A DNA stretch of 60,515 nucleotides from a virus (IMGVR_UViG_3300033463_000022:86542-147056), one strand, 5' to 3'. Shown: positions 1 to 60,515, numbered from the stretch's first letter. Program-made: numbers and translations. Notes: a model not told the origin generated them from the sequence alone.

Positions 1-2169
1 ATAGCTGATGATGTTTATGCTTGGGCGGCATATGATAATGCTGGCAAAGAAATTTCCGTAGAAGATATCCAGAATAAGATAGAAGAACTGCTAATGCGTT
101 CAGAGCGCCATGATGTAGCTCGTGAATATATACGTTATCGCTATAAACGAGAGATAGCTCGTAAGGGCAGTGACGATTTCGTTAAAGGATATAGCGAGAA
201 AATTAGTGCTTTAAACCCCGATATGCAGAATGCAAATGTGGACGAGTTCTCCTTTGGTGGTCGTGTAGGCGCAGGCTCTGATTATATGATGAAGCAATAC
301 GCACTTGATTACTGTGTATCCAAAGCTTCCCGCAACAATCATCTTAATAATGAAATTTACATTCACGACTTATCGGCATATGCTGTTGGTATGCACAACT
401 GCTTATCTATTCCTTTTGATAAGTTACTTGCGGAAGGTTTTAATACAAGACAGACTGATGTACGTCCTGCTGGTAGTGTAAATACAGCTATGCAGCTTGT
501 AGCTGTGCTTTTCCAGTTGCAAAGTCTCCAACAATTTGGTGGAGTATCCGCTACTCACCTTGACTGGACAATGGTGCCATATGTGAGAAAGAGCTTCTGG
601 AAGCATTATAAAGATGGCGTAGATTTTGTGATTGACTCTGACTCAGAGCTTACTGATCCAGAAAACTTCCGCGAAAAAACGTATAAGTTTGTCGAGCTTT
701 GTAAAGAGCAAAATGTAGGTATCGATGATAAAGTACTCTTACTTGATGGGGAAAGTCCTATTTATAAATATGCTCTTCGTCAAACCGAGAAAGAAGTTCA
801 TCAAGCCGTGGAAGGTCTCTACCATAACCTCAATACGTTGCAGTCACGAAGTGGGAATCAACTCCCCTTCACATCTATCAATTATGGTACTTGTACTCTC
901 CCCGAAGGACGCATGATTATTAAAGCGCTACTTGATGTTTCTATCGAAGGACTCGGTAAGTTACATAAAACCTCTATCTTCCCCTGCGGCATCTTTCAAT
1001 GTATGAAAGGAGTTAACCGTGAGCCAGGAGATCCTAATTATGACCTGTTCCGTCTTGCCTTGCAAAGTACATCTACAAGGCTCTATCCAAATTACGCGAA
1101 CGTTGACTGGTCCGGAAATGCCGGATACGACAGAAACGACCCAAAGACCTATTTCAGTACAATGGGCTGCAGGACAGCAAATGGCGCTGATATCAATGCC
1201 GACCCAGGAGTAAATCCGCAGACCAAGGATGGGCGCGGCAATATCTGTCCTGTCACCATTATTCTTCCCACTTTAGCGATGGAAGCTAAACAAGAGATTC
1301 TTGCTTGTGGAGATATTGGACATGAAGAAGTTGATATTATTGATGGGTTTATGGGTCTTCTCGATCAAAAGATCCATGAAGCTAAAGATATGTTAATCGA
1401 ACGCTTCGAGTATATCTGCGCGCAACCTTCTTCTGGCGCCAAGTTCATGTATGAAAATGGCAGTATGATGGGGTATGATGGTAAAGATACACGTTCAGCT
1501 CTTCGTCATGGGACTCTCGCCCTTGGCCAGTTAGGCTTAGCTGAATGCCTCCAAATTCTCATTGGGTGCGACCAAACAACAGACAAAGGGATGAAGTTAG
1601 CTAAAAAGATAGAGCAACTATTTAAAGATAGATGCAAAGAGTTTAAAGAGCAATATCATCTAAACTTTGGTGTATATTACACTCCGGCGGAAAACCTCTG
1701 CTACACGGCGCTTAAAGCGTTCCGCAAGAAGTATGGCATAATTCCTAATGTCAGTGATAAAGATTTCTTTACTAATTCTATACATGTACCAGTATGGAAG
1801 AAAGTATCTCCTTTCGAGAAGATTGATATTGAGAGCCAACTAACAGGATACTCAAGTGCTGGCTGCATTACTTATGTAGAGTTAGAAGCTGCCGTTAAGA
1901 ATAATATAGATGCTCTTGAAACTATAGTCAATTACGCTATGGATCATGACATTCCATATTTCGCCGTAAACGTACCTAATGACACTTGTCTCGACTGTGG
2001 CTATACCGATGAGCTTAATGGTACCTGCCCTATGTGTGGTAGTCATAATATTCAAGAGCTTAGACGTGTAACGGGATATTTAACTGGCAACTACAAGACT
2101 GCCTTTAATCTCGGTAAACAAGATGAAGTCGAGCATCGAGTCAAACATACTGGACAAATGGAGGAATAA
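1..2169 (+). CDS. nrdD: Anaerobic ribonucleoside-triphosphate reductase (class III RNR), 5'-truncated at window edge
   Basis: Frame is open from base 1 (IADDVY...ISVEDIQNKIEELLM, ATP-cone tail). Motifs IYIHDL, NTLQSRSGNQLPFTSINYG, TMGCRT, C-terminal CxxC...CPxC and LRRVTGYL glycyl-radical loop. nrdG is adjacent. Confidence 0.97.
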   Translation: MADDVYAWAAYDNAGKEISVEDIQNKIEELLMRSERHDVAREYIRYRYKREIARKGSDDFVKGYSEKISALNPDMQNANVDEFSFGGRVGAGSDYMMKQYALDYCVSKASRNNHLNNEIYIHDLSAYAVGMHNCLSIPFDKLLAEGFNTRQTDVRPAGSVNTAMQLVAVLFQLQSLQQFGGVSATHLDWTMVPYVRKSFWKHYKDGVDFVIDSDSELTDPENFREKTYKFVELCKEQNVGIDDKVLLLDGESPIYKYALRQTEKEVHQAVEGLYHNLNTLQSRSGNQLPFTSINYGTCTLPEGRMIIKALLDVSIEGLGKLHKTSIFPCGIFQCMKGVNREPGDPNYDLFRLALQSTSTRLYPNYANVDWSGNAGYDRNDPKTYFSTMGCRTANGADINADPGVNPQTKDGRGNICPVTIILPTLAMEAKQEILACGDIGHEEVDIIDGFMGLLDQKIHEAKDMLIERFEYICAQPSSGAKFMYENGSMMGYDGKDTRSALRHGTLALGQLGLAECLQILIGCDQTTDKGMKLAKKIEQLFKDRCKEFKEQYHLNFGVYYTPAENLCYTALKAFRKKYGIIPNVSDKDFFTNSIHVPVWKKVSPFEKIDIESQLTGYSSAGCITYVELEAAVKNNIDALETIVNYAMDHDIPYFAVNVPNDTCLDCGYTDELNGTCPMCGSHNIQELRRVTGYLTGNYKTAFNLGKQDEVEHRVKHTGQMEE

Positions 2170-2172
2170 GCC

Positions 2173-2460
2173 ATGAAAGTTATAAAACATGGTAATAGAT
2201 TATATTACCGCGAAACAGAACATGTTTGTGAAGTCTGCGGATGTAAGTATGCTTTTAATCTTGCAGACATCTCATATAAGATAGATTACAATAGCGAAGA
2301 GGACAAGTTTATCCCCTGTAACTATATTGTATGTCCAGAGTGCAAAGGTATTTATATTTTAAATCAAGAGACAGAAAGTGAGGAGCCTGCGGGCGGGAGC
2401 TCTGAAGCGCCTACAGGCGACCCTTCGACAGACCCTACTGATCCTAGTGGAGGCGACTAA
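2173..2460 (+). CDS. Hypothetical Zn-ribbon protein with acidic Pro/Gly-rich tail
   Basis: CEVCGC...CPEC motif; tight operon spacing; TAA stop. Confidence 0.75.
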   Translation: MKVIKHGNRLYYRETEHVCEVCGCKYAFNLADISYKIDYNSEEDKFIPCNYIVCPECKGIYILNQETESEEPAGGSSEAPTGDPSTDPTDPSGGD

Positions 2461-2462
2461 CC

Positions 2463-2960
2463 ATGCGCTATGCAGGAATCATATATAACGATATAACTGC
2501 GGCGCCAGGTATATGTCTCTCCTTCTTTGTGCAAGGATGCGATCGTCATTGCCCAGGGTGTCACAATCCAGAGACATGGGACTTCGATGGAGGTTTGGAG
2601 TTCACCGAAAAAACGATGAACTCCATCCTCGAAGGACTAGTCGCCAACGGAGTACATAGAGATCTTGCAATCATGGGCGGAGAGCCTATGGCAGAAGAGA
2701 ATATGTTCTTGGTGCAGATGATAATTAACGAGGTCAAGAAGGTATTACCGCAGACGAAAATCTTTCTTTGGTCTGGTTACACGTACGAAGAACTGGATAA
2801 AAGAACGGATGGCCGCACAGCCGCTATTCTTGCATCTATTGATTGTATTGTTGATGGACCGTATATCGAGGCTGAGCGCGATATTACGCTACCCATGAGG
2901 GGCAGCCGCAACCAACGCATCATTCCATTAAAGGAGGGCAAACCTTGTGAAGCAATATAA
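2463..2960 (+). CDS. nrdG: Anaerobic RNR activating enzyme (radical SAM)
   Basis: FVQGCDRHCPGCHNPETW radical-SAM motif, GGEP, IVDGPY, RGSRNQR. Confidence 0.96.
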   Translation: MRYAGIIYNDITAAPGICLSFFVQGCDRHCPGCHNPETWDFDGGLEFTEKTMNSILEGLVANGVHRDLAIMGGEPMAEENMFLVQMIINEVKKVLPQTKIFLWSGYTYEELDKRTDGRTAAILASIDCIVDGPYIEAERDITLPMRGSRNQRIIPLKEGKPCEAI

Positions 2961-3267
2961 TTGCCCTGACTGCATGGTAGCAGAAGATTCGTGTGATGGC
3001 TGCCAACGAGCAGCGACCGCAAACAAGCCATCTAATTACAATGATTTGTTAGAGCGATTAAGTGAACCCATCCCGCATCTTAGATGGGACTGGGACTCTA
3101 CTGCTGAAATCCCCTCTTGTTGTCGCAATTGCAGTAACCATCCTTCTAATGGAGGTTCCGGTATTTGTCATTGTACTTTACCTTATGCAACAGAGAATCC
3201 AATTAAGTACGATTATCAAGGATATGAAATAACAACTTGCACTTCTGAAAATTATATTGTAAAATAA
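2947..3267 (+). CDS. Cys-rich hypothetical protein
   Basis: GTG start overlapping nrdG end; CPDC, CDGC, CCRNC..HPSNGGSGICHC. Confidence 0.7.
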   Translation: MKQYNCPDCMVAEDSCDGCQRAATANKPSNYNDLLERLSEPIPHLRWDWDSTAEIPSCCRNCSNHPSNGGSGICHCTLPYATENPIKYDYQGYEITTCTSENYIVK

Positions 3268-3279
3268 TACTATAAAGGA

Positions 3280-3675
3280 GTGATCACAGTGACATTATAT
3301 GAAATGAACCAAGCCGGCTATGCTAGCCTTCCAAAGATGGCTAAAAGCGCAATTTCAGCTGCTGAAGACAAAGTGGCGGACTGGATTCAAGCCAGTTTAA
3401 GCGAACATGGCGGCGAAAATATATATTTTATGCTTTTAAATAACGATCTTCACTACTATACGCTCTTTAATTGGAGAGCATTATCCCCTAAAGAGGGCGG
3501 TGGAGATAGCGAAGACGTTGTGAGAGAAATTTTCTCTATCGTTAAGAGTCTTGGCACCCTTAAAGCTATAGAGAAAAATAACAATGACGCTTGGGAATTT
3601 TGGATTACCAAACCCAATGCTACGACTGACGCCTACTATCTATTCGATTATACGAAAGGAGTGATAGAGGTATGA
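3280..3675 (+). CDS. Hypothetical phage protein
   Basis: AAGGA RBS, GTG start, operon position. Confidence 0.75.
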   Translation: MITVTLYEMNQAGYASLPKMAKSAISAAEDKVADWIQASLSEHGGENIYFMLLNNDLHYYTLFNWRALSPKEGGGDSEDVVREIFSIVKSLGTLKAIEKNNNDAWEFWITKPNATTDAYYLFDYTKGVIEV

Positions 3676-3941
3676 TAGAAGATTGCTTAATAATTGACTA
3701 CGACCCATTTAGCTGTGAATCTCGCGTTATTGTTGTTGAGAACGGTCAGCGGGGAATGATGGGCGTAAGTTCGGATGTGAATAATCTTGCGAAAGAGCTT
3801 CCCACCTATTGTCAGAAATATAACCAATGTAAAGTAAAGTTCCACGCTCCAGTTGGTATTTTCTATGAATTGAAACGTCAATTGGAAGAGAATGAACAGA
3901 CTCTCTATGGGGAGAATAGAATAGAATTGGAGATTTGTTAA
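3672..3941 (+). CDS. Hypothetical phage protein
   Basis: ATGA overlap with previous gene, GAGG RBS. Confidence 0.75.
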   Translation: MIEDCLIIDYDPFSCESRVIVVENGQRGMMGVSSDVNNLAKELPTYCQKYNQCKVKFHAPVGIFYELKRQLEENEQTLYGENRIELEIC

Positions 3942-3942
3942 T

Positions 3943-4185
3943 ATGAGTTATCTACTTAAAGTGCAAAATACTTACCGCGTTGAAACAGAGCAGGAGGCAT
4001 TAACTCTTCGTGAGACACTCCGCAATAAAAGTAATGGCGAGCTTATTGCTTTCTCTTACACAGTCAAAGAAGTGAAGCAGAAGGGTGAGGTCATTGGAAC
4101 CTATGTGGTATGCAAGGCGACTATAGAGTTTAATAAAGAGAAAGAGCCTGAGCGTACGGTTCAAGTAACCTATGAGGATATTTAA
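3943..4185 (+). CDS. Hypothetical phage protein
   Basis: Operon spacing; ORF track 80 aa. Confidence 0.75.
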   Translation: MSYLLKVQNTYRVETEQEALTLRETLRNKSNGELIAFSYTVKEVKQKGEVIGTYVVCKATIEFNKEKEPERTVQVTYEDI

Positions 4186-4186
4186 C

Positions 4187-4831
4187 ATGGAAGGTATTAG
4201 ATTTGATAAAGTCTCCCGTTTTAAAGATGTAGATCTGCCTCTCCCAACAAGAGGTACAGAGTTTTCAGCAGGATATGATTTTATTGTGGCTGAGGACGTA
4301 GTCCTCAAACCTTACGAACATGTCTCTACAATACTCCGGAACGGAGTAGCCCTTAATGATTACTGGGGATATACAAAACCAGTGACGCTACAAGAAATGG
4401 CTCAGGCCACGAAAGATCTTAAGGCCAAAGTACAGCTTGTATCCACTGGCATGAAGGCGTATATGCCGCAAGGCACTTACCTTGAACTTACCATGAGGAG
4501 TTCTACTCCCCTTAAGCACTGGCTCATTCTAGCAAACTCGAAGGGAATTATAGATGCCGACTATGTTGATAATCCCGATAATGAAGGCGAAATCTTTATG
4601 CAGATTATCAACCTTGCACCTTTTGCTATCCAGCTCAAGCGTGGCGATAAGATCGGCCAGGGTATCTTCCATAGATTTGAGATTACTGAAGACGACGCAG
4701 CAAAAGGTAAGAGAGAGGGAGGACTTGGTAGCACAGGTTCTACTATCTCCTAGGGTATGACTCAATTTATCAGACGAGAGATGGAAGAACGTGCGGCCGC
4801 AGGCTCTATGGTGTCTAGCGAGCAAGGTTAA
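4187..4831 (+). CDS. dut: Trimeric dUTPase; ends at TAG 4751-4753 in standard code, or 26 aa later at TAA 4829-4831 if TAG=Gln
   Basis: Motifs SAGYDF, MRSST, GIIDADY, KIGQGIF, REGGLGSTG. Start taken as ATG 4187 behind GAGGA. Confidence 0.93.
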
Positions 4832-4841
4832 GGTGGTTATA

Positions 4842-5315
4842 ATGAAAGTTCTATGTCTTGACCAAGCTACCAAAGTGAGCGGCTGGTCAGTATGGGATGG
4901 TTAGAAATTGGTAGCATAGGGAAAGTTCTCCTTTGAAGAGGACGGTAATCTAGTCTCTCGTCTGCACTAGATCAAGCTTAATGTCCTATAGCTTATCAAA
5001 GATTATAATATATAGAAGCTATATCTTGAAGATATTTAGTATCAACAACAAGCTGGAGTTACGACGTACAAGATTTTAGCCGAACTAATAGGGGTCTTAC
5101 AAGAGTTAGCTTTTGAAAATTAGATACCGTCTGAATTAGTACATTCGTAGTCTTGGAAATCATCCTGCGGAATTAAAGGGCGTGCTAGAGCAGAATAGAA
5201 GTAGAGCGCATAGTAGCACGTTAAATAGGTCTATGGTCTATCTGTATCGTAGGATGAAGCCGATGCCATTTGCATAGGCGAGCATGTTACAAGGCAAGAC
5301 GCATGTGCTTGGTGA
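4842..5315 (+). CDS. RuvC-like Holliday junction resolvase (TAG-recoded, 157 aa)
   Basis: Manual translation with TAG=Q: MKVLCLDQATKVSGW...LYLEDIQYQQ...QDEADAICIG...AW-TGA, showing the RuvC acidic motifs (D7, E, DxxD). 14 in-frame TAG; absent from the ORF track. Confidence 0.88.
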
Positions 5316-50171: not shown

Positions 50172-50369
50172 TTGAACTCGGACGCTGCCGCAATATACGC
50201 CGCTATCTTATCTACCGCACCTATTGATTGTATTAAAATTAAAGATGCAGAACATACCTCTATTCATGATATTGTCTCTACACTTCGTCACTGGAGAGAC
50301 TATACAGAAACGCTACAGCGTGATAATGACGCTTTACAAGAAATGGTGGATGCTTATGAAAAAGATTAA
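50172..50369 (+). CDS. Hypothetical protein
   Basis: AAGGAG RBS, TTG start, overlaps NADAR start. Confidence 0.65.
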   Translation: MNSDAAAIYAAILSTAPIDCIKIKDAEHTSIHDIVSTLRHWRDYTETLQRDNDALQEMVDAYEKD

Positions 50370-50784
50370 TAAATTCGCAGGAGACTATGGAGTTTTCTCT
50401 AACTTCTATTACTCCCCAATTTGGGATGATGGAATCGAATACCCCACTGTAGAGCACTACTTCCAAGCTATGAAGACACTAGACCCTAACCAACGCCGAA
50501 CGATTTCTATAGCCGCCACACCGGGCGCCGCAAAGAGAATGGGGAGGAGAGTAAAGCTAAGAGACGATTGGGAGCAAGTAAAGGAGCGCTACATGCTGTT
50601 TGCTCTACGTCAAAAGTTTTTAGATCCTACATTGAAAGAAAAATTGCTTGCGACTGGTGATACCTACCTGGAAGAGGGTAATAGCTGGGGCGATACATAC
50701 TGGGGCGTTTGCAATGGAGTGGGGAAGAATAGACTGGGTTATCTCTTGATGCAGGTAAGGGAGGAATTAAATGCTAACCGATAA
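50356..50784 (+). CDS. NADAR family (YbiA-like) hydrolase
   Basis: FSNFY...YPTVEHYFQAMK...AKRMGR...DWEQVK...KF...LLATG...EGNSWGDTYWG...GKNRLG..LMQVR. Confidence 0.92.
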   Translation: MKKINKFAGDYGVFSNFYYSPIWDDGIEYPTVEHYFQAMKTLDPNQRRTISIAATPGAAKRMGRRVKLRDDWEQVKERYMLFALRQKFLDPTLKEKLLATGDTYLEEGNSWGDTYWGVCNGVGKNRLGYLLMQVREELNANR

Positions 50785-51022
50785 GATTGAATGGCACGAC
50801 GCCCGCAAGGAACAACCTCCGATTGATGATTTTCTCTTACTAGCATATTATGATGATAGTGGAGACTATGTAGACTACTACGTTGGATATGGTTGGTATC
50901 TCAAGACTCACGATCTTTATATTATGGACGATATGGTAAATTATAATGTGATGTATTGGGCAGAGTTACCGAAGTTCCCTATCAATGGTAGAACGTACTG
51001 GGAAGTAGGAGGAGGATGTTGA
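50771..51022 (+). CDS. Small phage protein (DUF551-like W-rich)
   Basis: IEWHDARKEQPP...VMYWAELP pattern. Confidence 0.7.
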   Translation: MLTDKIEWHDARKEQPPIDDFLLLAYYDDSGDYVDYYVGYGWYLKTHDLYIMDDMVNYNVMYWAELPKFPINGRTYWEVGGGC

Positions 51023-51540
51023 TGGAGAGTAGAATTGAATGGCATTCTGTTTGGAAGCAGTTGATAATTGCAAGGAAAGACCTTGGAATGAGTCCTGGAA
51101 AGCTGGCCGCGCAGGTTTCTCATGGAAGTATGGCGTTTTTAACGTCGATGATAAAGAAGCAAGCTACAAAGATGCCAGATGGTATGATATTCATGGGCGA
51201 TAACGGAAAAGTGGTTGTGACCGGTGAAGATGAATACTACTGTTCAGTTTTATGGATTCCTAAAGGTATTTATGAAGGATGGATACAAGGGTCTTTTACC
51301 AAGGTAATATGCGAAGCAAAAAATAAGAGCCAACTTCTAAAGGCAGTAGAAATAGCAAAGGAGTTAGGACTAGAAGAAGGCAGAGACTACTTTTTAATAA
51401 AGGATAATTGCTTGACGGAACTGGAGCCGGAGGAAGTAGACGAGAGTGGAGTAGGGAGGACGTTAACTGTCGTGGGATTCCGTCCCTTACCTGCGGAGGT
51501 ATGTGCGAAAATTTCGCGGAAATTTCAACTGTATAAATGA
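51022..51540 (+). CDS. pth2: Peptidyl-tRNA hydrolase, Pth2 family
   Basis: KQLIIARKDLGMSPGKLAAQVSHG, KVICE, IKDNCLTEL...TLTVVGFRP; TGATG overlap start. Confidence 0.88.
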   Translation: MESRIEWHSVWKQLIIARKDLGMSPGKLAAQVSHGSMAFLTSMIKKQATKMPDGMIFMGDNGKVVVTGEDEYYCSVLWIPKGIYEGWIQGSFTKVICEAKNKSQLLKAVEIAKELGLEEGRDYFLIKDNCLTELEPEEVDESGVGRTLTVVGFRPLPAEVCAKISRKFQLYK

Positions 51541-51771: not shown

Positions 51772-52213
51772 GGTTAGTAGTGACTAGGAGGCAGGTTGAA
51801 GGAGACCGTGTTTTGGATGAAGAGGGGATTTCAAGATTTTAGAGACCAGCCAACTTTCGTACACTAAAGTGAAAAAGAAAATCGCCCGAATACCTACCCC
51901 GGTACTAGGAGCGCTTTCACACGGTAAAGCGTCAAAACGTACTACCCACCCCGGAATCTGTAAGCTCTCGCTAACACCGACGCACGCCCTATTTAGCACG
52001 CTTTAGCACTCTAAAGAAATAAATTGCAAGCCTTTTCGCGCTCTCTCGCTTGCTATCTTCCCGATTTTCTCTCTTGTTTACATTGCACAATTCAAGTGAG
52101 AGAATCGGGTTATTATTTGTGTAAAATACCATCTTGCATTTGTCCGGACAATTTGCTATACTACAATCAGAAAGAGCAAGGAACACATCAATAGTAAGAA
52201 AGGAGAACACGCC

Positions 52214-52381
52214 ATGTATAGAATTTATTATCATCCTCATTATGGCAATGGCTACACTGGCGAGGAGTGGATAGGCACAAACGACACACATGAAGCTTAT
52301 ATTAGAGGCACGATGATTATATCTGGTTGGGAGTATGAGCACATCTTCAAAGAAAAGGAAAAGGTTGAAACCAAAGGTTAA
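52214..52381 (+). CDS. Microprotein, 55 aa
   Basis: AAGGAG RBS, downstream of promoter 52134-52162. Confidence 0.7.
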   Translation: MYRIYYHPHYGNGYTGEEWIGTNDTHEAYIRGTMIISGWEYEHIFKEKEKVETKG

Positions 52382-52408
52382 GGGCAACAAAAGAAAGGAG
52401 TACATACC

Positions 52409-52543
52409 ATGAAAAGATATGACGCTGACGCCATCATCCATTATATCGCAGTAGCGAAAGAGCTTGCGGAGTCGCTCATTGGAGCTGTGTGCCTTGTCGC
52501 TGGCATCATTGGCGTGTGGTTCATAGGCTGTGCGCTTGCTTAA
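52409..52543 (+). CDS. Microprotein, 44 aa, one TM helix
   Basis: AAGGAG RBS; LIGAVCLVAGIIGVWFIGCALA. Confidence 0.7.
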   Translation: MKRYDADAIIHYIAVAKELAESLIGAVCLVAGIIGVWFIGCALA

Positions 52544-52564
52544 TAAGGAAAGGAGAGAACGACT

Positions 52565-52723
52565 ATGAAGACCAACATCAACTACATGAATCGTACGACT
52601 GGAGAACTCACCGACAGACACTATATTGCGATGGAGTGGTACAACGACGGCAATGAAGTCAGCCTCATCACCTATAGCGAAGTCGTCGGCGAATGGCTGG
52701 AGAGAGGGCGCTGGGAGCACTAA
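52565..52723 (+). CDS. Microprotein, 52 aa
   Basis: AAGGAG RBS. Confidence 0.7.
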   Translation: MKTNINYMNRTTGELTDRHYIAMEWYNDGNEVSLITYSEVVGEWLERGRWEH

Positions 52724-52753
52724 GCTCCCAGCATAAGGAAAGGAGATAGGGCA

Positions 52754-52933
52754 ATGTACGACGATTATGAATATAGCGCATTTTGCGCATACAACGATTA
52801 TATGGCAAACGACACAGAGCGCGATATCATGGAACGCGATGATAGCGGATTCTCTATCGGTGGCGTTGGGATGGGGAAGTTTACAGCGCCCTATCAGACA
52901 GATTATATCAGCGGCTATCACCACTTTGGCTAA
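52754..52933 (+). CDS. Microprotein, 59 aa, acidic/aromatic
   Basis: AAGGAG RBS; followed by hairpin 52932-52959. Confidence 0.68.
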   Translation: MYDDYEYSAFCAYNDYMANDTERDIMERDDSGFSIGGVGMGKFTAPYQTDYISGYHHFG

Positions 52934-53283
52934 TAGACCGGGAGAAATCTCGGTCTATTCTTCTATCTATCCCAATAGACCGATAGGCTACACAGAAAAG
53001 AGTAAGTCAATTGCGGCCGGCGCGCACACGAGCGTTTTTAATACGTGCGCGCCGAATTCACGCTTTAAAGTGCTAAAGTAAATTTTTGTGCAACTTGCAC
53101 AATAGCGCTTTAAAGTGTTAAAGTCCTAAATTGGCGAGTAACTTGTGAAGTTACTGCGCATTTTGCACAAAAACTTGTATAAATCTTTGTATATTTTACC
53201 TATTGCAATTCCGGGCAGAGCGTGCTATACTGTATACAGAAAGAGGGAAGGAAAACCCCACAAACCGGAAAGGAATTAAGACC

Positions 53284-53586
53284 ATGACGATTTACAAGCT
53301 GACCGAGAACAAGGCTCTTCCCAAGTCCCTTTACTTCACCAGTAAGACCAAGCTTCTTTCCTATCTGCGCGCTATCAAGAACAAGGATTTTGTAGCGGTC
53401 TCCATCCCCAATCCCGACCGTCCCTGGGAGCCTCGCTCTTATGATGAAGAGTACCATAGTGACAAGATGCGTACTTTCCGCCGTGGTAAGTGGGACACCG
53501 ATACCATCACTATTTACTTCGAGCGCAACGTCAACAATGGTCACTGCTGGGACGCCTACACCATAGAACGCATTGAGGTTATCTGA
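53284..53586 (+). CDS. Early hypothetical protein (100 aa)
   Basis: Own promoter 53203-53231, AAGGA RBS, terminator 53595-53620. Confidence 0.8.
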   Translation: MTIYKLTENKALPKSLYFTSKTKLLSYLRAIKNKDFVAVSIPNPDRPWEPRSYDEEYHSDKMRTFRRGKWDTDTITIYFERNVNNGHCWDAYTIERIEVI

Positions 53587-53919
53587 CCGAATAGACCGAG
53601 GGAAAATCCCTCGGTTTTTTCTATATCATTTCACTTTCGCACTTTAAAGCGTGGCCGGGCCGCCTCCGAGCGTTTTTTGATATGGCGGCCCGCACTTTAG
53701 CGCACTGAAGTGCTACACTTTTATGCGCTAAATTGCGTCATTTCGCTTTAACGCACTAAAGTCCTAAAATAGCGCGGTAACTTTATAAGTTACTCGGCAC
53801 TTTATCACACTAAAGCGCTAAACCTATTAAAATTTTTAATGACCCTTATTAAAAAGTCGCGCTTGCAAAATGCTTCCGGGTGTGCTACAATGACTATAGT
53901 AAATGAAGGAGGTAATCCC

Positions 53920-54360
53920 ATGAAGATTATGCACGCCGAACCCGTGAGCAATAAAAATATCGGCATTGCCGCGCAGTTTGCGCTTGCCGCTCTTATGGGC
54001 GTTCCGCAGTCAAAGCACGATTCTGTCCCTTATGATAAAGGTTCTGATGTTTCTGTGAACGGCATGGAGATTTCCGTCAAGGCGTCCGGTTTTACGCTGA
54101 TGTCCGGCTCTTTATGCGAGGGACGTGATACGTTCGATGGTATTTGGGACTTGTATGCCGAGAACGTCCATAGCAACACTTTCGCCTATGTTACCGCGGA
54201 TTTCACCGTTTATATGATGAATCTCTCCGAGTTTGAGCGCTTTGTATATGCGTTTTGCCGCATAGAGCGCGAGTCCGAAAAGAACGGTGGCGCAATGAAA
54301 ATCCGTTGCCGCAAGGAATCCGCCAAAATGCTGGCATGGCTCGCGGCGGAAGTTGCATAA
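53920..54360 (+). CDS. Early protein with PD-(D/E)XK-like motif (146 aa)
   Basis: AAGGAGG RBS; HDSVPYDKGSDV..NG..ISVK. Confidence 0.75.
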   Translation: MKIMHAEPVSNKNIGIAAQFALAALMGVPQSKHDSVPYDKGSDVSVNGMEISVKASGFTLMSGSLCEGRDTFDGIWDLYAENVHSNTFAYVTADFTVYMMNLSEFERFVYAFCRIERESEKNGGAMKIRCRKESAKMLAWLAAEVA

Positions 54361-54424
54361 GGGCTTGACAAATCAAGCCCTATATGGTACAATACAGACA
54401 ACAAGAGAAAAGGAGATTAAAACC

Positions 54425-54547
54425 ATGACTTGGCTTCATCTTATAACTATTATCGACGAGGAAATGGACAAGGAAAATATCAACCAGTTTGACGAGGTTA
54501 CTTTTGACGAACTCGTACGCATTCTCAATATTGCGGCACAAAAATAA
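54425..54547 (+). CDS. Acidic microprotein, 40 aa
   Basis: Own promoter 54365-54393, AAGGAG RBS, terminator 54551-54577. Confidence 0.72.
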   Translation: MTWLHLITIIDEEMDKENINQFDEVTFDELVRILNIAAQK

Positions 54548-54806
54548 ATCAACCGAGGGCTGAAAATGCCCTCGGTTTTCCTTTTCCTTTCGCCGGCCCG
54601 CGCTCGACCAATTTTTAATCGCGCGGGCCGAGTTTAGCGCTTTAAAGTGCTACAGTGATTTTTGTGCAAAATGACGAATCACGCTTTAAAGCATTAAAGT
54701 CCCCAAATTTGTGCAAAATGACGAAAAATTTTTTCGCCAAACCCCTTGACAACCGACCGGAAGTGTGCTATACTTAGGCTACAGTAAAGGAAAGGGGAAC
54801 AACACC

Positions 54807-55271
54807 ATGACTACCAACACCGCTCTGCTTCTCAACCTCATCGACCGCTACAACGCCCTTGCGTACACCCACGACTACATCTTCGGCTTCTTCTTCCACG
54901 GCAACGTCTATATGGCTTATGCCAACTCCTCCATGCTTCCTGCTATCCTCTGCGTGGACAAGGCTTCCCGCGGTCAGGGCATGGCTCTCCGCTTCTGCCC
55001 CAACAAGGATATCAAGGTCGCCCTTATGGCGGGTGCGGAGCTCCTTTGCTCCGAGGAGTACTTCGAGGATGTTAAGGACTCCTGCGGCTACAATAAGGGC
55101 GAGACCTTCGAGAAGCTCGTGACCGAGCGTTTCGGGCAGGTCTGGCATAAGGACAATGTCCCCTTCACTGAGGACGGGGATGTGACCGCGGACGGCATCG
55201 CCTATCAGGTCAAGTTTGAGCGCGCCACATTCACCAACGAGAAGATTCTCGCCAAGCTCGAGCGGGCATAA
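54807..55271 (+). CDS. Early protein with PD-(D/E)XK-like motif (154 aa)
   Basis: NKGETFE...KDNVPFTEDGDV..DG..YQVK; own promoter 54746-54774. Confidence 0.78.
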   Translation: MTTNTALLLNLIDRYNALAYTHDYIFGFFFHGNVYMAYANSSMLPAILCVDKASRGQGMALRFCPNKDIKVALMAGAELLCSEEYFEDVKDSCGYNKGETFEKLVTERFGQVWHKDNVPFTEDGDVTADGIAYQVKFERATFTNEKILAKLERA

Positions 55272-55409
55272 GCCCGCTCTTTTGGTTTCGCCCGGGCGAC
55301 TGACCATTTGCACAAAAGGACCGAATCATTTTTGTGCAAAATACCATCTTGATTTTTTAACTTTTATTTGTTATTATTATAATAGAAAAAGGAAAGGGGA
55401 TTCCAAGCC

Positions 55410-55520
55410 ATGCGTGACTACTTCCAGCGCGTCCGCTCCCGCGGCAAGTTCTGTCGCTTCGACCTCACCAATAAGCACGTCCGCGCTATCGCTAAGCGCG
55501 AGCTTCGGAAGGCGGTGTAA
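55410..55520 (+). CDS. Basic (Arg-rich) microprotein, 36 aa
   Basis: AAGGGG RBS after promoter 55349-55377; MRDYFQRVRSRGK... Confidence 0.65.
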   Translation: MRDYFQRVRSRGKFCRFDLTNKHVRAIAKRELRKAV

Positions 55521-55522
55521 GT

Positions 55523-55720
55523 ATGAAGATTATCGATTGGGATGATAAAATCGCTTCCCTTGAAAATGTCCGTGACGTTGTCGCTCTCACAAGCTGTAAA
55601 GACGGCTACACCATCAGAATCAATTACATGGACAACAACTTTACATGTTTCCTCAACTTGTCGCTTACTGCCAAAAATGTGTTGATGAACGACATTAAGC
55701 GAATTCTTGAAAAAGCTTGA
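55523..55720 (+). CDS. Early hypothetical protein (65 aa)
   Basis: Coupled to the preceding gene. Confidence 0.7.
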   Translation: MKIIDWDDKIASLENVRDVVALTSCKDGYTIRINYMDNNFTCFLNLSLTAKNVLMNDIKRILEKA

Positions 55721-55776
55721 CAAGCGCCCTCAAGTGTGCTATAATAAGACCATCAAGAGAAAAGGAGATTACAGCC

Positions 55777-56013
55777 ATGATGACTTCGATTAAGACCAAG
55801 AACGGTAACGTCCCCATCAACATGACCCACGGTTTTGACTGCGTGGTTCGCGGTCAGATTGTTCAGAACTTCCGTTCCTATGAAGCCGCTCGTACCTATC
55901 AGCGGATTCATAACGCGCAGGCGGACGCTATCGCCAAAGACAACATTGGCAAGCCCAAGGACGAGCGCAAGTCTGTCCCCGCGTCCTGCTCTATCCTCTA
56001 CTATACCGTCTGA
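55777..56013 (+). CDS. Early hypothetical protein (78 aa)
   Basis: Own promoter 55717-55745, AAGGAG RBS. Confidence 0.75.
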   Translation: MMTSIKTKNGNVPINMTHGFDCVVRGQIVQNFRSYEAARTYQRIHNAQADAIAKDNIGKPKDERKSVPASCSILYYTV

Positions 56014-56339
56014 AAAGACGCGTACAAGCCGCCCCTGTTTTCATGGGGCAGGGGCGGCTCTCCTTTCCCAAACTATCGGGGCAAGGGTTGGCTCACGCAT
56101 GGCCGTGCGTGCTTGCTCCGTTTTGAATAACCGCCTTGTTGAGCTAGCCGCGACAAGGCGGCATTTTAACAAGAGAAGAAAGTGTTATGTAAACTTGCGG
56201 CCGGTCGCCCGCCCGGGCGGTTGGCAAGATGACTAGTTTTTCTAACCTCGCGTCCGCAAGTTTTTGGTTATTTTGACTATTGACTTTTCTCTCTTGTTGT
56301 AGTATTATTAAGATACAAAAAGAAAAGGAAGGTTGAGCC

Positions 56340-56714
56340 ATGACTACTAAAACCGTTTACGTTGCTTTTGATGGCAAGCAGTTCAACACTGAGAATGAGT
56401 GTCGCGAGTACGAGAAAAGAGGTATGATTCCCAAAGGTGTCACCGTCTTCGATGCAGATTTTAAACGTACAGTAGACCCTTACAAGGCAATTTTCATCGT
56501 GGTAGACCACGAGCTAAAAGAAGATGAAAATGCTCTCTTCCTCAATTGGATTAACTCTGCTAGCGCAACAGACGAGCCTGAGGATGATTTTTTCGAGACG
56601 GGTGTTCATGCTTGGGATTATTACCGCGAAAGCTACATTCATTTTCCGTATGAAAAATTCGACATCTTCAGAAAGCTTTTTAACCTTGGAGAAAAAATAA
56701 TTAGGGACTGCTAA
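56340..56714 (+). CDS. Early hypothetical protein (124 aa)
   Basis: YVAFDGKQFNTENECREYE N-terminal motif; own promoter 56280-56308. Confidence 0.8.
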   Translation: MTTKTVYVAFDGKQFNTENECREYEKRGMIPKGVTVFDADFKRTVDPYKAIFIVVDHELKEDENALFLNWINSASATDEPEDDFFETGVHAWDYYRESYIHFPYEKFDIFRKLFNLGEKIIRDC

Positions 56715-56795
56715 TTAGCAGTCCCTTTGACATTTAAAAAATTTTATTCTATAATAATAACAGAAAATTAAAGAAAGGAAAGCTGACGAGTGCGG

Positions 56796-56906
56796 ATGCT
56801 GATTAGATTCCTCACTACCATGCTAAAGCGCGATTGCCTAAGGGCCCGGAGCTGCGATAAATGTCCGGTGCGCTAGTACTGCGGAAAACTTCCGAGTGAA
56901 TGGTAA
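56796..56906 (+). CDS. Cys-rich microprotein (36 aa) with one in-frame TAG
   Basis: MLIRFLTTMLKRDCLRARSCDKCPVR-Q-YCGKLPSEW-TAA; downstream of promoter 56727-56755; RBS spacing is imperfect. Confidence 0.55.
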
Positions 56907-56969
56907 CTAGAGGTCGGCCGTCGAACGGCCGTTTCCCGCGCGCTTAGGTCAGTAGAAATTTTAATCGAC

Positions 56970-57209
56970 ATGACACCGCTTGATGCAACACGCAAATTGG
57001 ATACACTTGGAAGAATTGTTATTCCCAAAGACTTGCGCGAAGAATTTCACCTAATCCAGGGACGCCCCTACAAATTCTTCCTGCATGAGGAAGATGGACA
57101 CCAGTACCTATGTATTCAATGCCCGGGCCCGAACAGTGACGAGCTGAACAAGGCACGCCAGATGTTGGAGGATGCTGGATACTTTGTCACAGCCGAGGAC
57201 GAATTGTAA
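56970..57209 (+). CDS. AbrB/SpoVT-like DNA-binding protein
   Basis: TRKLDTLGRIVIPKDLRE swapped-hairpin motif. Confidence 0.85.
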   Translation: MTPLDATRKLDTLGRIVIPKDLREEFHLIQGRPYKFFLHEEDGHQYLCIQCPGPNSDELNKARQMLEDAGYFVTAEDEL

Positions 57210-57299
57210 CCCGGGCGTTCGTCAAAATAGACAACTCAAATCCTTGAATTTTGTGCACCTTGCCTATTGCAATCCTACAGGCAAGGTGTTATACTATAA

Positions 57300-57545
57300 T
57301 TGTTCCGAGGGAATGAAACCAGAAGAGGTTGAGCGAGCTTGGGCTTGGTTCAGATGGTGCGCAACATCGGCAACAGTCCCAACCGCCAATCAGCAAAACT
57401 ATGGGGCGCCTTCTCCTTGGATTACAACTGAATAAAGGGCAGGTACGCCGTAGCTACCCACTGCTCGCAAAGGTAGCCGTCACCGCTGACGCGAGTATTG
57501 TGTAAAGTGTGGCGGTCGAAGCCGAGGGTCGCTCCCTCGGCTTTC
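57300..57545 (+). ncRNA. Candidate structured small RNA
   Basis: Own promoter 57267-57295 and terminator 57519-57543; no RBS-led ORF; two hairpins with complementary loops. Confidence 0.4.
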
Positions 57546-57666
57546 GGTATTTCTACGGTTAGTCTAGGCTAACCGCCCGGGCGCCGCAATTTTTGTGCAA
57601 CTTGACTATTGACTTCTGTCTTTTATTATGGTATTATAAGAGTACAAAAAGAAAGGAGATAACACT

Positions 57667-57933
57667 ATGAAAGCACTTGGTATTGTGCGCCGCATCGACG
57701 ACCTCGGGCGTATCGTAATCCCCAAAGAAATCCGCCGCAACCTCCACATTAACGAGGGCGACTCAATGGAGTTTTTCGTGCAGGACGGCGACCTCGTTCT
57801 TCACCCGCTGGAAGCGGTTGTCCTGTCGCACAAACTGCGCGACCTCGCGGACGAGTTTGATTACAATTCGCTCTACGCTATCGCAAGCAAACTGCGTGTA
57901 ATGGCAAGAGAGATGGAGGAGGAGCGCGAGTAA
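57667..57933 (+). CDS. AbrB/SpoVT-like DNA-binding protein
   Basis: MKALGIVRRIDDLGRIVIPKEIRRNLHINEGDSMEFFV, very close to the AbrB/SpoVT N-terminal consensus. Confidence 0.92.
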   Translation: MKALGIVRRIDDLGRIVIPKEIRRNLHINEGDSMEFFVQDGDLVLHPLEAVVLSHKLRDLADEFDYNSLYAIASKLRVMAREMEEERE

Positions 57934-58070
57934 AGGGGAAGCCCTTTACTTCGCCCGGGCGCCCGTCAAAATAGCCAAACAAGAGGAAGAAAGATTGTGC
58001 AAATTACCAAATTGACAATTTTAATTAAAGATGTTATTATAAGAGTACAAAAGGAAAGGAGATACAGACC

Positions 58071-58523
58071 ATGAACTACAGAACAATTAACCTTGACATG
58101 GACGGTACGATTGCCAATCTCTACGCGGTGGACAACTGGCTTCCCAAACTCCGTGCCTACGATGCCGCGCCGTATGCCGAAGCTGTCCCAATGGTGAGAA
58201 TGTCCACGCTTGCGCGGTATCTAAACAAAGCGCGGCGCATGGGCTACACTGTCAACATCATTTCGTGGCTGTCCAAAGAACCGAATCCCACGTTTGATGA
58301 AGCGGTCACACAGGCGAAAATCGACTGGCTCAAAAAGCATCTTCCCTCGGTCGATTTCGACAACATCTTCATCGTCCCCTATGGCACGCCGAAAGCCTCC
58401 CTTGCAAGCGGGATTCTGTTTGACGATGAAAAGCCCAACAGACAGAGCTGGGCGGCAGAAAATGACGCAAACATGGCGTTTGATGCTGATAAACTGCTTG
58501 AGATTCTGCGGAATCTGCTGTAA
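58071..58523 (+). CDS. HAD-superfamily 5'(3')-deoxyribonucleotidase-like protein
   Basis: LDMDGTIANLY motif I; K..WL..H; GILFDDE motif IV. Confidence 0.82.
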   Translation: MNYRTINLDMDGTIANLYAVDNWLPKLRAYDAAPYAEAVPMVRMSTLARYLNKARRMGYTVNIISWLSKEPNPTFDEAVTQAKIDWLKKHLPSVDFDNIFIVPYGTPKASLASGILFDDEKPNRQSWAAENDANMAFDADKLLEILRNLL

Positions 58524-58679
58524 ACAAGAGGAAAGGAAATAGACCTAGGGAACGTGCGGCGACCCTAGGTCTCTCGCCCGGGCGACCTTGGTTAAAGTAA
58601 CTAAAAGGCGTGCGGCCGCACGTATCAAATTTGTGCAAAATACCATCTTGCAATTCTGCGAAAATCTGCTATAATAATA

Positions 58680-58791
58680 ATTGTCAAGAGGGAGTGAGAC
58701 CCCGTGGGCTGGGCTAATGGTATGTAATGTCCCACAGTTGTAGTCCGAGGCGCCAGGATGAAAAAAAAGACCAAAATTCCCTCTTGACAAT
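58680..58791 (+). ncRNA. Candidate small RNA closed by a 14-bp terminal stem
   Basis: Promoter 58648-58675; ATTGTCAAGAGGGA...TCCCTCTTGACAAT perfect inverted repeat; no ORF. Confidence 0.35.
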
Positions 58792-58860
58792 CCTCGCGAC
58801 CTATGTTATAATAGGTACATAAAGACAAGGCTAGTCTAAAAAACCAGAAAGGATTTGATT

Positions 58861-59262
58861 ATGGCTACTACTGATTCCAAGACCCCGCGCATCACTAAGG
58901 CTCAGCGTTTCGCTGACATTAAGGCTCTGCTGACTGGCGATACCGTCACCAACGGCACGACTGTCGATGAAGCTCTGTCGGTTCTCGACCATGAGATTGA
59001 GCTTCTCTCCCGCAAGAACACTTCGGTCGATAAGCGCAAGGCTGAGGCTGATGCCCAGAATGCCGCGTTCAAGGCTTCGATCGTTGACTTTCTTGCGGGC
59101 GTCGATGGCGATGGCATGACCTGTACGGATATCGGCAAGTCTATCCCCGCGCTGGCTGACTTCAACACCAGCAAGATGTCCTCCCTCTGCAACGCCCTCG
59201 TCAAGGACGGCGCACTCGTCAAGGCTACGGTCAAGGGCAAGACCCTGTTCCGCCTTGCGTGA
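58861..59262 (+). CDS. Early protein with C-terminal winged-helix-like domain
   Basis: MTCTDIG...TSKMSSLCNALVKDG...KGKTLF; own promoter 58784-58812. Confidence 0.78.
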   Translation: MATTDSKTPRITKAQRFADIKALLTGDTVTNGTTVDEALSVLDHEIELLSRKNTSVDKRKAEADAQNAAFKASIVDFLAGVDGDGMTCTDIGKSIPALADFNTSKMSSLCNALVKDGALVKATVKGKTLFRLA

Positions 59263-59419
59263 CCCGCGGGGCGCGGTAGAAATGCCGCGCCCCTTGCCTT
59301 TGTCGGCGTGTTAGCTAAGGCTAACCGCCCGGGCGCCCGCAAATTTGTGCAAAATGCCAACTTGACACGGCTGTGATGATGTGGTATCATTAAGATACAA
59401 AAGGAAAGGAGATACGAAC

Positions 59420-59629
59420 ATGGACGAGGAAATGATTCAGCTGCTGCGCAAAATCTGTCGTGCACGGTATGAGTATTACGATAAAAAGGCAAAAGAACTC
59501 AAGGAAGATAACCCCGTTCAGCGCATGATGTATCTGACCTCTGCCTGCGACTACGAAACGATGGAGCTGATGCTCTACTACGCAGAGAGGGGCAAATACG
59601 AGGCACTCAAAGAATTCGACTATTTCTAA
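59420..59629 (+). CDS. Early hypothetical protein (69 aa)
   Basis: Own promoter 59362-59390, AAGGAG RBS. Confidence 0.78.
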   Translation: MDEEMIQLLRKICRARYEYYDKKAKELKEDNPVQRMMYLTSACDYETMELMLYYAERGKYEALKEFDYF

Positions 59630-59776
59630 CTGCGGGCGCGGGTAACTCCCCGCGTTTCGCCCGGGCGTCTGGCAAAATGCACAAAGCGGCCGCCGCAAGT
59701 TTGGCTATTTTAACTATTGACTTCTTACTGTTGTTGGATTATAATTAGAGTACAAAAAGAAAAGGAGATTCAAGCC

Positions 59777-60100
59777 ATGAAATTTGAGCCTAAAATCAGC
59801 GGCACTAGCGTTACGGACTACGGCAAAATCAAAGTCTTTCCCCATCTGCTTGACCAGATTGTGACCCTGTTTGACATTAACAAACTGACGAATCAGCGCG
59901 CCGTGCAGTTTATTCTCGATGCTTACAATATGGTACCGCTTAACGCAGACCATGCCGAGGGGTGCAACTGGGGCGCGATTATGTCCTATGACGACATTCT
60001 CAAAGTGTCGATTTTGGAAAATCACCCTGACCTCGAAGCGGAGCTTCAGGATTATTTCGGGGTTAACTGGCTGAAACAGTACATCCGATTCAACCATTAA
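59777..60100 (+). CDS. Early hypothetical protein (107 aa)
   Basis: Own promoter 59717-59745, AAGGAG RBS. Confidence 0.78.
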   Translation: MKFEPKISGTSVTDYGKIKVFPHLLDQIVTLFDINKLTNQRAVQFILDAYNMVPLNADHAEGCNWGAIMSYDDILKVSILENHPDLEAELQDYFGVNWLKQYIRFNH

Positions 60101-60118
60101 AGAAAGGGGGAATATAAA

Positions 60119-60322
60119 ATGGTGACCAAGCAGGTTCGATTCCGCGATAAAGCTAACGACCAGACCCTCGGAGGTATCCTCATTCAGAGCGGCGTGGTGG
60201 ACTACATCATCTGCGGCTGTTGCGGCGGGGTGATTGAAACTGATGACCCCGACATTGAGATTGAGGAAATTTATCGTAACTGGAGCGACATTAGCGAGTG
60301 CATCATCGGCGAGGAGGACTGA
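60119..60322 (+). CDS. Small Cys-containing hypothetical protein
   Basis: AAGGGG RBS; ICGCCGG. Confidence 0.75.
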   Translation: MVTKQVRFRDKANDQTLGGILIQSGVVDYIICGCCGGVIETDDPDIEIEEIYRNWSDISECIIGEED

Positions 60323-60449
60323 CGCCCTTTCGCCCGGGCGGCCGGCATTTTGCACAAAGAGCGCCCGCAATCTTTGTGCAAAATGCCATCTTGCTTTTCT
60401 TCTCTTGTTGTGGTAAGATTAAATTAACAAATGAGAGGAGCAATAACCT

Positions 60450-60515
60450 ATGTATGCAATAATGCTTGATACTGAAACTACGAACGACCTTGAGTCGCCC
60501 ATGATGTACGATTGC
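60450..60515 (+). CDS. DEDD 3'-5' exonuclease-like protein, truncated by window end
   Basis: MYAIMLDTETT ExoI motif; GAGGAG RBS; promoter 60391-60419. Confidence 0.6.
   Translation, partial: MYAIMLDTETTNDLESPMMYDC

Follow-up and report, generated by a model that had tools for sequence, protein, structure and literature searches.

Why should some 34 small and largely unrelated genes in one region of a phage genome sit behind nearly the same promoter, leader and inverted repeat, and does this repetition serve the expression of the genes or their exchange? The question is raised by a viral stretch of 60,515 nucleotides (IMGVR_UViG_3300033463_000022:86542-147056, hereafter the window), which is the final 60.5 kb of a 147,056-bp IMG/VR record and ends in an array of plus-strand expression cassettes. 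A first-pass annotation had proposed that this array shuffles genes in the manner of the promoter-early stem-loop (PeSL) cassettes of T4-type phages. With a probability of roughly 0.7, we favor an explanation in which the array is an early, host RNA polymerase-dependent accessory region in a roughly 147-kb phage of a rumen Firmicute, and in which the sequences between its genes are boundary modules with a regulatory role that also serve as recombination sites of short homology, PeSL-like but in a Firmicute phage lineage. The proposal of shuffling is borne out in that cassettes have been gained, lost, duplicated and reordered, and in that mapped junctions lie in the repeated modules.

The repeated boundary module

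The array occupies window positions 52,100-60,515 and continues across the contig end into genome bases 250-5250, amounting to 13.4 kb with a G+C content of 0.477, 34 curated genes (2,989 codons) and about 28 promoters. The 17 sigma-A promoters noted at first pass were recovered as 17 promoter-like sites on the plus strand between 52134 and 60419, starting at 52134, 53203, 53863, 54365, 54746, 55349, 55717, 56280, 56727, 57267, 57609, 58012, 58648, 58784, 59362, 59717 and 60391. An extended -10 TG occurs in 14 of them, and 11 match the consensus at 10 or more of 12 positions, compared to 0.76 +/- 0.91 in 200 dinucleotide shuffles and to one on the minus strand. The 10-bp palindrome CGCCCGGGCG, previously counted eight or nine times, is present as eight exact copies (55289, 56210, 57574, 57952, 58575, 59326, 59658 and 60331) and one single-base variant, AACCCGGGCG at 57208, compared to 0.01 in shuffles of the window. 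Genome bases 1-5250, beyond the contig end, add five perfect palindromes and about 11 promoters. The array thus holds 13 perfect and five one-off palindromes, and all 13 perfect copies in the 147-kb genome fall within its 13.4 kb.

The module has a regular order. A stop codon, often within the 5' arm of a hairpin whose sequence varies, is followed, 0-8 nt past the hairpin, by CGCCCGGGCG; about 5 nt past the palindrome comes CAAAATGCACAAA, and 10-25 nt further on TTTGTGCAAAAT(A/G)CCA(T/A)C, which runs straight into the -35 hexamer of a promoter of the form TTGACA-17-TGnTATAAT (17-nt spacer). A short A-rich leader, (A)AGAGTACAAAAAGAAAGGAGAT, whose end is AAAGGAGAT, then precedes N6-7 and the ATG. 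In most modules the promoter lies 20-90 nt downstream of the palindrome. Every module of these CCCGGGCG-box cassettes contains one or two TTGCACAA/TTGTGCAA boxes, the last at a fixed distance of about 17 nt upstream of the -35 hexamer, a position that UP elements or activator sites occupy. One box is the reverse complement of the other, and at 53086 they meet to form a perfect palindrome of 17 bp. In the phage and its relatives, 56 of 92 copies of CGCCCGGGCG have a perfect stem of 6 bp or more whose end is no further than 8 nt away, compared to 56 of 360 random sites. Two further features described at first pass, the near-identical leaders ((A)AGAGTACAAAA(A/G)GAAAGGAGAT and AAGATACAAAA) and the hairpins sharing CCGAGGG/CCCTCGG stems (53593, 54551 and 57518), are also present.

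Relatives were collected by an IMG/VR pattern scan and a metagenome protein scan, and those discussed here (L053, L054, L055 and G001-G005) come from other samples and were assembled separately. Their exonuclease, the best conserved early gene, is 89% identical to that of the phage in L055, 82% in L053, 81% in L054 and 59% in G001, falling to 46-47% in G003, 43% in G002, 29-32% in G005 and 26-28% in G004. The module order of hairpin, palindrome, TTGTGCAA/TTGCACAA boxes, promoter and leader is unchanged in the relatives with 26-59% identity. Perfect palindromes number 2, 4, 11, 22 and 25 in G001-G005, in each genome all within a single early block, and the reversed control pattern was found in none of these five. 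The boxes differ between lineages, reading TTGTTCAA-A-TTGAACAA in G005 and TTGTGAACAA/TTGTAAACAA in G004, while the palindrome stays perfect; L054 has four perfect copies and five variants with single outer-base changes. From this pattern we infer that a conserved factor, of phage or host origin, reads the palindrome as a functional site; the boxes resemble UP-like elements, or operators specific to each lineage. IMG/VR locus searches gave one distant relative with the exonuclease as query and none with the 79-aa AbrB protein. A scan of bacterial genomes for the palindrome plus box returned, among the matches listed, single chance hits, mostly in high-GC genomes, and no array.

It is possible, although we hold it tentatively, that CGCCCGGGCG after a variable, U-tract-poor hairpin is the recognition site of a putative conserved protein that sets cassette boundaries. 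Such a protein might act in a new type of factor-dependent termination or insulation, or might be the enzyme that initiates the exchange of cassettes; if so, the array would be an organised, protein-run system common to a wide family of large Firmicute phages from gut and rumen. Known binding systems were also considered. For a ParB/KorB-type global operator system no ParB-family gene was found, with no PF02195 match in the phage genome or in four relatives. Noc and Spo0A boxes, the LexA Cheo box and the CRP-type site TGTGA-N6-TCACA were rejected on their sequences or spacings. Candidate binders encoded in the array itself are the two AbrB/MazE-domain proteins and a pair of predicted winged-helix paralogs of 133 and 129 aa.

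Rearrangement within the population

The contig start preserves a deletion of two cassettes. Contig bases 1-127 equal window 59238-59364 and bases 96-249 equal window 60361-60515, so that 59364 is joined to 60391 and a plus-strand segment of 1,026 bp (59365-60390; cassettes 14 and 15, three genes) is skipped, which part of the population lacks. The crossing over took place inside TTTGTGCAAAATGCCA(A/T)CTTG, a box common to the promoters of cassettes 14 and 16. The 127- and 128-nt overlaps fit a graph bubble of which both branches were traversed; the 16-21 nt repeat alone would be insufficient to produce them.

Short repeats can confuse metagenome assemblers, and the variation could in principle be an assembly artefact: Logan contigs break at every module, and the junction can be read directly only in the opening 249 bases of a single contig. 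We regard this as highly improbable. The run shared at the junction, 16-21 nt, is far below the word size implied by the overlaps, and in run X1 the Logan-contig depth of the skipped segment (8.2) is about half that of the flanks (15.1 and 18.9). Moreover, the eight relatives named above were assembled separately, and their genes are diverged and not merely rearranged.

An independent JGI contig, L039, has the full, undeleted form. The deletion-junction 34-mer, searched exactly, occurred in no other IMG/VR record, and a look-up of the 133-aa protein in other assemblies returned the full-length gene order only. Run X3, from another study, has no differences from the window over 56002-57406, 58032-58690, 58832-59268 and 59304-59577, and contains a patch of 8-11% divergence that begins at 54729-54738, just upstream of the promoter at 54746, and ends near 55900-56002. 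Summed metagenome depth is far higher in module sequences than in unique genes (529 vs 25, for example, at position 53258), and the modules are therefore common to co-occurring phages. Most of the short-sided joints in the read table come from other phages with the same module, and were not used as evidence.

Rearrangement between relatives

Gene content differs among all relatives, and among those with about 80% identity the order differs as well. With semicolons separating transcription units and n marking a gene without a homolog in the phage, the order in this phage is NT5C; 133; 69; 107,67; EXO; 79; 57,63; 129; 74,75; 132. In L055 it is NT5C,54n; 82n; 107; 48n,67,69; 128; 57,58n; EXO, in L054 NT5C; 49n,69,57; EXO; 61n,46; 130; 134, and in L053 134; 69,57; EXO; 135; 131; 67n; 74,65. 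Fixed gene order, which had been named as grounds for abandoning the shuffling proposal, is thus not what these three genomes have. Extra copies also occur, with NT5C present twice in G002 and the 132-aa gene twice in G002 and in G003.

Three junctions were mapped at the nucleotide level, and the insertions and deletions are bounded by the motif and leave a chimeric module behind. L053 lacks genome bases 873-1714 (842 bp), and homology to the left flank gives way to homology to the right flank precisely at the palindrome. The cassette of the 88-aa AbrB protein, which lies between the palindromes at 57574 and 57952, is absent from L054 and L055. Across the comparison, the 54 ends of homology blocks fall 13 times in coding sequence (58% of length), 34 times in modules (38%) and seven times in operon spacers (3.9%); for seven of the 54, a palindrome is no more than 12 nt away (2.7% of length).

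These endpoints bear on two alternatives. In one, the palindrome and hairpin are the target of an enzyme devoted to them, be it a site-specific recombinase or an endonuclease of the nicking or homing type, which captures cassettes in an integron-like way. Ten bases invariant in about 90 copies, in phages whose proteins are down to 26-32% identical, would suit such an enzyme, as would the two mapped events that switch exactly at the palindrome and the roughly five-fold enrichment of block ends there. However, the crossover of the population deletion is in the promoter box and not in the palindrome, other junctions lie at Shine-Dalgarno spacers, L054 tolerates its five one-base variants, and each cassette has its own promoter, unlike integron cassettes. 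No match to tyrosine (PF00589) or serine (PF00239) recombinases, and no integrase or resolvase, was found in the whole genome. We therefore consider a dedicated enzyme quite unlikely, and a dedicated recombination site at the palindrome, in line with the earlier suggestion, is hypothetical.

In the second alternative the repeats are purely regulatory, and recombination is random and illegitimate, with selection sparing endpoints between genes. The seven block ends in module-free operon spacers, an enrichment per base above that of modules, are in keeping with this, as is the failure to find a phage recombinase. Against it, both one-step junctions lie inside runs identical in the two parents (16+4 nt in the box, 10-11 nt at the palindrome), and the recombinant modules are seamless chimeras. 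We judge this explanation unlikely.

Interpretation

In our view the module serves regulation first, and recombination follows from the fact that it is repeated. Each module would end or insulate the upstream unit and start the next one strongly. Proteins binding the palindrome and the boxes would probably place the units under joint control, the boxes perhaps being bound by a regulator or by the alpha subunit of RNA polymerase. The same 10-30-bp sequences recur between unrelated genes and also serve as short-homology crossover points, at which general recombination, by host functions or by phage functions not recognised as such, would delete, insert, duplicate or reorder whole genes and leave a working chimeric module, as happens with PeSL cassettes. 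Titration of host RNA polymerase by the dense promoters, also suggested at first pass, is hypothetical.

Several observations weigh against this interpretation. Promoter activity, early timing and termination are predictions from sequence, and the proteins that bind the palindrome and boxes are putative. The hairpins mostly have no U tract, with a mean of 1.9 T in the 6 nt preceding the palindrome, and are therefore not canonical intrinsic terminators. No RecT, ERF or RecA homolog was found in the phage. The deletion variant is known from assembly structure and contig depths, not from raw reads. Several junctions lie at stop/Shine-Dalgarno spacers within operons, such as the joint of the 69- and 57-aa genes in L053 and L054, and selection alone would also leave breakpoints between genes. 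The position of that joint at a Shine-Dalgarno spacer indicates that the repeated AAAGGAGAT leader is an exchange point as well.

Individual cassettes and their products

All cassettes in the window are on the plus strand. Cassette 1 (52134-52959) has a promoter at 52134-52162, four small open reading frames (ORFs; 52214-52381, 52409-52543, 52565-52723 and 52754-52933) and a hairpin at 52932-52959. Cassette 2 (53203-53617) follows a long spacer with CGCTTTAAAGTGCTAAAGT-type boxes instead of a palindrome, and comprises a promoter (53203-53231), a 100-aa ORF (53284-53586) and a hairpin (53593-53617). Cassette 3 (53863-54360) has its promoter at 53863-53891 and a 146-aa ORF (53920-54360) with homologs in G002, G003 and L054, and cassette 4 (54365-54577) has a promoter (54365-54393), a 40-aa ORF (54425-54547) and a hairpin (54551-54577). 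Three long spacers in this part of the array (52934-53283, 53587-53919 and 54548-54806, within 52934-54806) contain a second set of signals and no CGCCCGGGCG, namely a GC-rich hairpin of the GGCCGG...GAGCGTTTTT type and two to four copies of a GCGCTTTAAAGTGC/CTAAAGT box; they may represent a separately regulated promoter class.

From cassette 5 (54746-55298) onward the palindrome appears. This cassette has a promoter (54746-54774), a 154-aa ORF (54807-55271), a hairpin (55260-55279) and a palindrome (55289-55298). Inverted TTTGCACAAA/TTTGTGCAAA boxes at 55306-55341 belong to cassette 6 (55349-55720), whose promoter (55349-55377) precedes ORFs of 36 aa (55410-55520) and 65 aa (55523-55720). Cassette 7 (55717-56219) comprises a promoter (55717-55745), a 78-aa ORF (55777-56013), a GC-rich non-coding tail and a palindrome (56210-56219), and cassette 8 (56280-56726) a promoter (56280-56308), a AAGATACAAAAAG leader, a 124-aa ORF (56340-56714) and a hairpin (56703-56726).

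Cassette 9 (56727-57217) has a promoter (56727-56755), a 38-codon Cys-rich ORF (56790-56906), a hairpin (56915-56931), an AbrB-like ORF (56970-57209) that has no Shine-Dalgarno site, and a palindrome variant (57208-57217). The small ORF encodes a conserved, Cys-rich peptide of 38-39 residues with the C-terminus ...CGK(L/R)PSEW, and its stop codon lies 4-8 nt upstream of the terminator-like hairpin, after which the AbrB gene follows. It contains one in-frame TAG here (56874-56876), and five of the seven distinct readable orthologous ORFs have an in-frame TAG, at four different positions, in an early region otherwise free of them; one of these aligns with a CAA Gln codon. Speculatively, a ribosome at the true stop would occupy the hairpin and couple AbrB expression to amber suppression, and the small ORF and hairpin may form an attenuator that senses such suppression.

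Cassette 10 (57267-57583) has a promoter (57267-57295), a candidate non-coding RNA at about 57303-57545 and a palindrome (57574-57583). The promoter-driven unit (57296-57545) has no ORF and ends in a terminator hairpin at 57518-57544; its 5' 135 nt are nearly identical in L054, and L055 has three compensatory pairs in one stem. We consider the transcript a candidate early small RNA. Rfam, at gathering and E-value thresholds, returned nothing credible for the region, this unit included.

Cassette 11 (57609-57961) has a promoter (57609-57637), a consensus leader, an AbrB/MazE-domain ORF of 88 aa (57667-57933), a stop-codon hairpin and a palindrome (57952-57961). Cassette 12 (58012-58584) has a promoter (58012-58040), a consensus leader, a 5'-nucleotidase (NT5C) ORF (58071-58523), a hairpin and a palindrome (58575-58584). 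Cassette 13 (58648-59335) has two promoters in tandem (58648-58675 and 58784-58812), separated by a structured spacer of 100 nt, the 133-aa winged-helix ORF (58861-59262), hairpins at 59268-59293 and 59310-59325, and a palindrome (59326-59335). The deletable cassettes are 14 (59362-59667), with a promoter (59362-59390), a 69-aa ORF (59420-59629), a hairpin and a palindrome (59658-59667), and 15 (59717-60340), with a promoter (59717-59745), ORFs of 107 aa (59777-60100) and 67 aa (60119-60322) and a palindrome (60331-60340). Cassette 16 (60391-60515) has a promoter (60391-60419) and the start, at 60450, of the 213-aa DEDD-type exonuclease gene, which resumes at genome base 250.

The 133-aa gene and the 129-aa gene (genome 1957-2346), each with tandem promoters, are paralogs with 76% nucleotide identity. 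Their structural model (pLDDT 88) has a long helix followed by a predicted C-terminal winged helix, and weakly resembles the MarR, HxlR, ArsR and Z-alpha folds. Upstream of both paralogs and of the 132-aa gene lies a tandem pair of consensus promoters with 75-135 nt between them (window 58648-58860; genome 1774-1956 and 3148-3345), an arrangement kept in L053-L055. One of the three inter-promoter leaders, 58683-58790, folds significantly (z = -3.7), closed by a stem of 13 bp that extends into the second -35 hexamer, and the other two have no significant fold.

Twenty array proteins were scanned against Pfam and 10 of the roughly 34 against PHROGs. Three of the 20 had a clear match (two AbrB-like, one NT5C), and neither scan found families beyond AbrB/MazE-like and 5'-nucleotidase. 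The host-takeover or anti-defence role suggested for the genes is accordingly not borne out by family assignments. Nonetheless, the standardised units flag about 34 small orphan early genes as candidates for such roles.

Genome context and genetic code

The independent contig L039 extends from window 48071 through genome 8257 at 100% identity over 20,453 bp, bridging the contig ends, which are therefore contiguous in a circular or circularly permuted genome. The contig ends fall inside the array, and depth is not doubled there. The record, classed as linear and 85% complete, forms a closed map, circular or permuted, of about 146.8 kb. The record start is the deletion-variant branch, and the record end the full-length branch, of one bubble (window 59238-60515, genome 1-249). 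Megablast of the whole region against a phage database gave no match, and a tRNA scan of the window found none.

The flagged region has a G+C content of 0.45-0.50, compared to about 0.39 in the late region. The minus-strand late genes form long reading frames only with TAG as a sense codon, and a frame of 2,897 codons is open under TAG=Q. The phage translates TAG as Gln in its late genes, in agreement with the UAG-to-Gln recoding known in gut phages (PMC10879173). The 34 array genes end in TAA (23) or TGA (11), never in TAG, and have no in-frame TAG; they read the same under both codes. On the plus strand of the array (window 52100-60515 and genome 250-5250) the trinucleotide TAG occurs 90 times, compared to about 225 expected from base composition. 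Of 20 CCCGGG sites genome-wide, 18 lie in the array and two in the other roughly 134 kb, a scarcity that suggests avoidance outside the array. Directly upstream of the array (window 50224-51540) are genes for a NADAR-domain protein (ADP-ribose processing) and a PTH2 peptidyl-tRNA hydrolase.

Comparison with known systems

Integrons combine the IntI tyrosine recombinase with promoterless cassettes that depend on a common promoter and are separated by an imperfect attC site of 57-141 bp. The array resembles them in its same-strand, single-gene units separated by a palindromic site, and differs in having no integrase, a perfect palindrome of 10 bp and a promoter for each cassette. An integron is ruled out, since the genome has no integrase match and every unit has its own promoter. 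The morons of lambdoid phages, reportedly treated by Juhala et al. in 2000, are autonomous promoter-gene-terminator units inserted between phage genes; here, in contrast, more than 25 units form a contiguous array with a boundary module standardised across the family.

We know of no report of an invariant boundary palindrome or of cassette shuffling in the Bacillus phage SPO1. As summarised in PMC6873191 (citing Stewart et al. 1998), the host-takeover module of this large lytic Firmicute phage packs about 26 small early genes into about 12 kb, and its numerous short operons have strong ribosome-binding sites and strong promoters of the sigma-A type. The array is similar in its dense small early genes with strong sigma-A-type promoters and ribosome-binding sites. 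With respect to SPO1 gp37-gp60, the PHROGs scan of 10 array proteins named only AbrB/MazE-like and NT5C families. The SPO1 module is placed in the terminal redundancy; in our phage the contig ends fall in the array, without doubled depth and with L039 bridging them.

The closest likeness is to the PeSL cassettes of the hyperplastic regions of T4-type phages (Arbiol et al. 2010, PMC2839356; Comeau et al. 2014, PMC4122927). In both, a strong early promoter of the host type and a stem-loop, joined in one composite motif (about 100 bp in PeSL cassettes), recur together between ORFan genes in a plastic region, and the motif flanks insertions and deletions between relatives and leaves one chimeric copy at the junction. 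Excised mini-circles are a further mark of PeSL cassettes. In PeSL subclasses the stem-loop is usually inside the promoter or overlaps it (PMC2839356), whereas the hairpin of the array is always upstream of the promoter and never inside it. The array also adds the invariant 10-bp GC palindrome and the TTGTGCAA-type boxes, and its leader and Shine-Dalgarno site are repeated and serve as junctions too. It further differs in having a Firmicute host and in belonging to a phage that is not evidently T4-like; the Firmicute-type sigma-A and Shine-Dalgarno signals, together with the 2,897-codon frame, argue against a T4-like myovirus. If our interpretation is correct, PeSL-type shuffling, described only for T4-like phages of Gram-negative hosts, would extend to an unrelated group of large phages of gut Firmicutes with a recoded stop codon, with an exchange caught inside a natural population and not between species only. 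The persistence of a perfect 10-bp palindrome alongside proteins of less than 30% identity, meanwhile, points to a DNA- or RNA-binding factor that would be worth finding.

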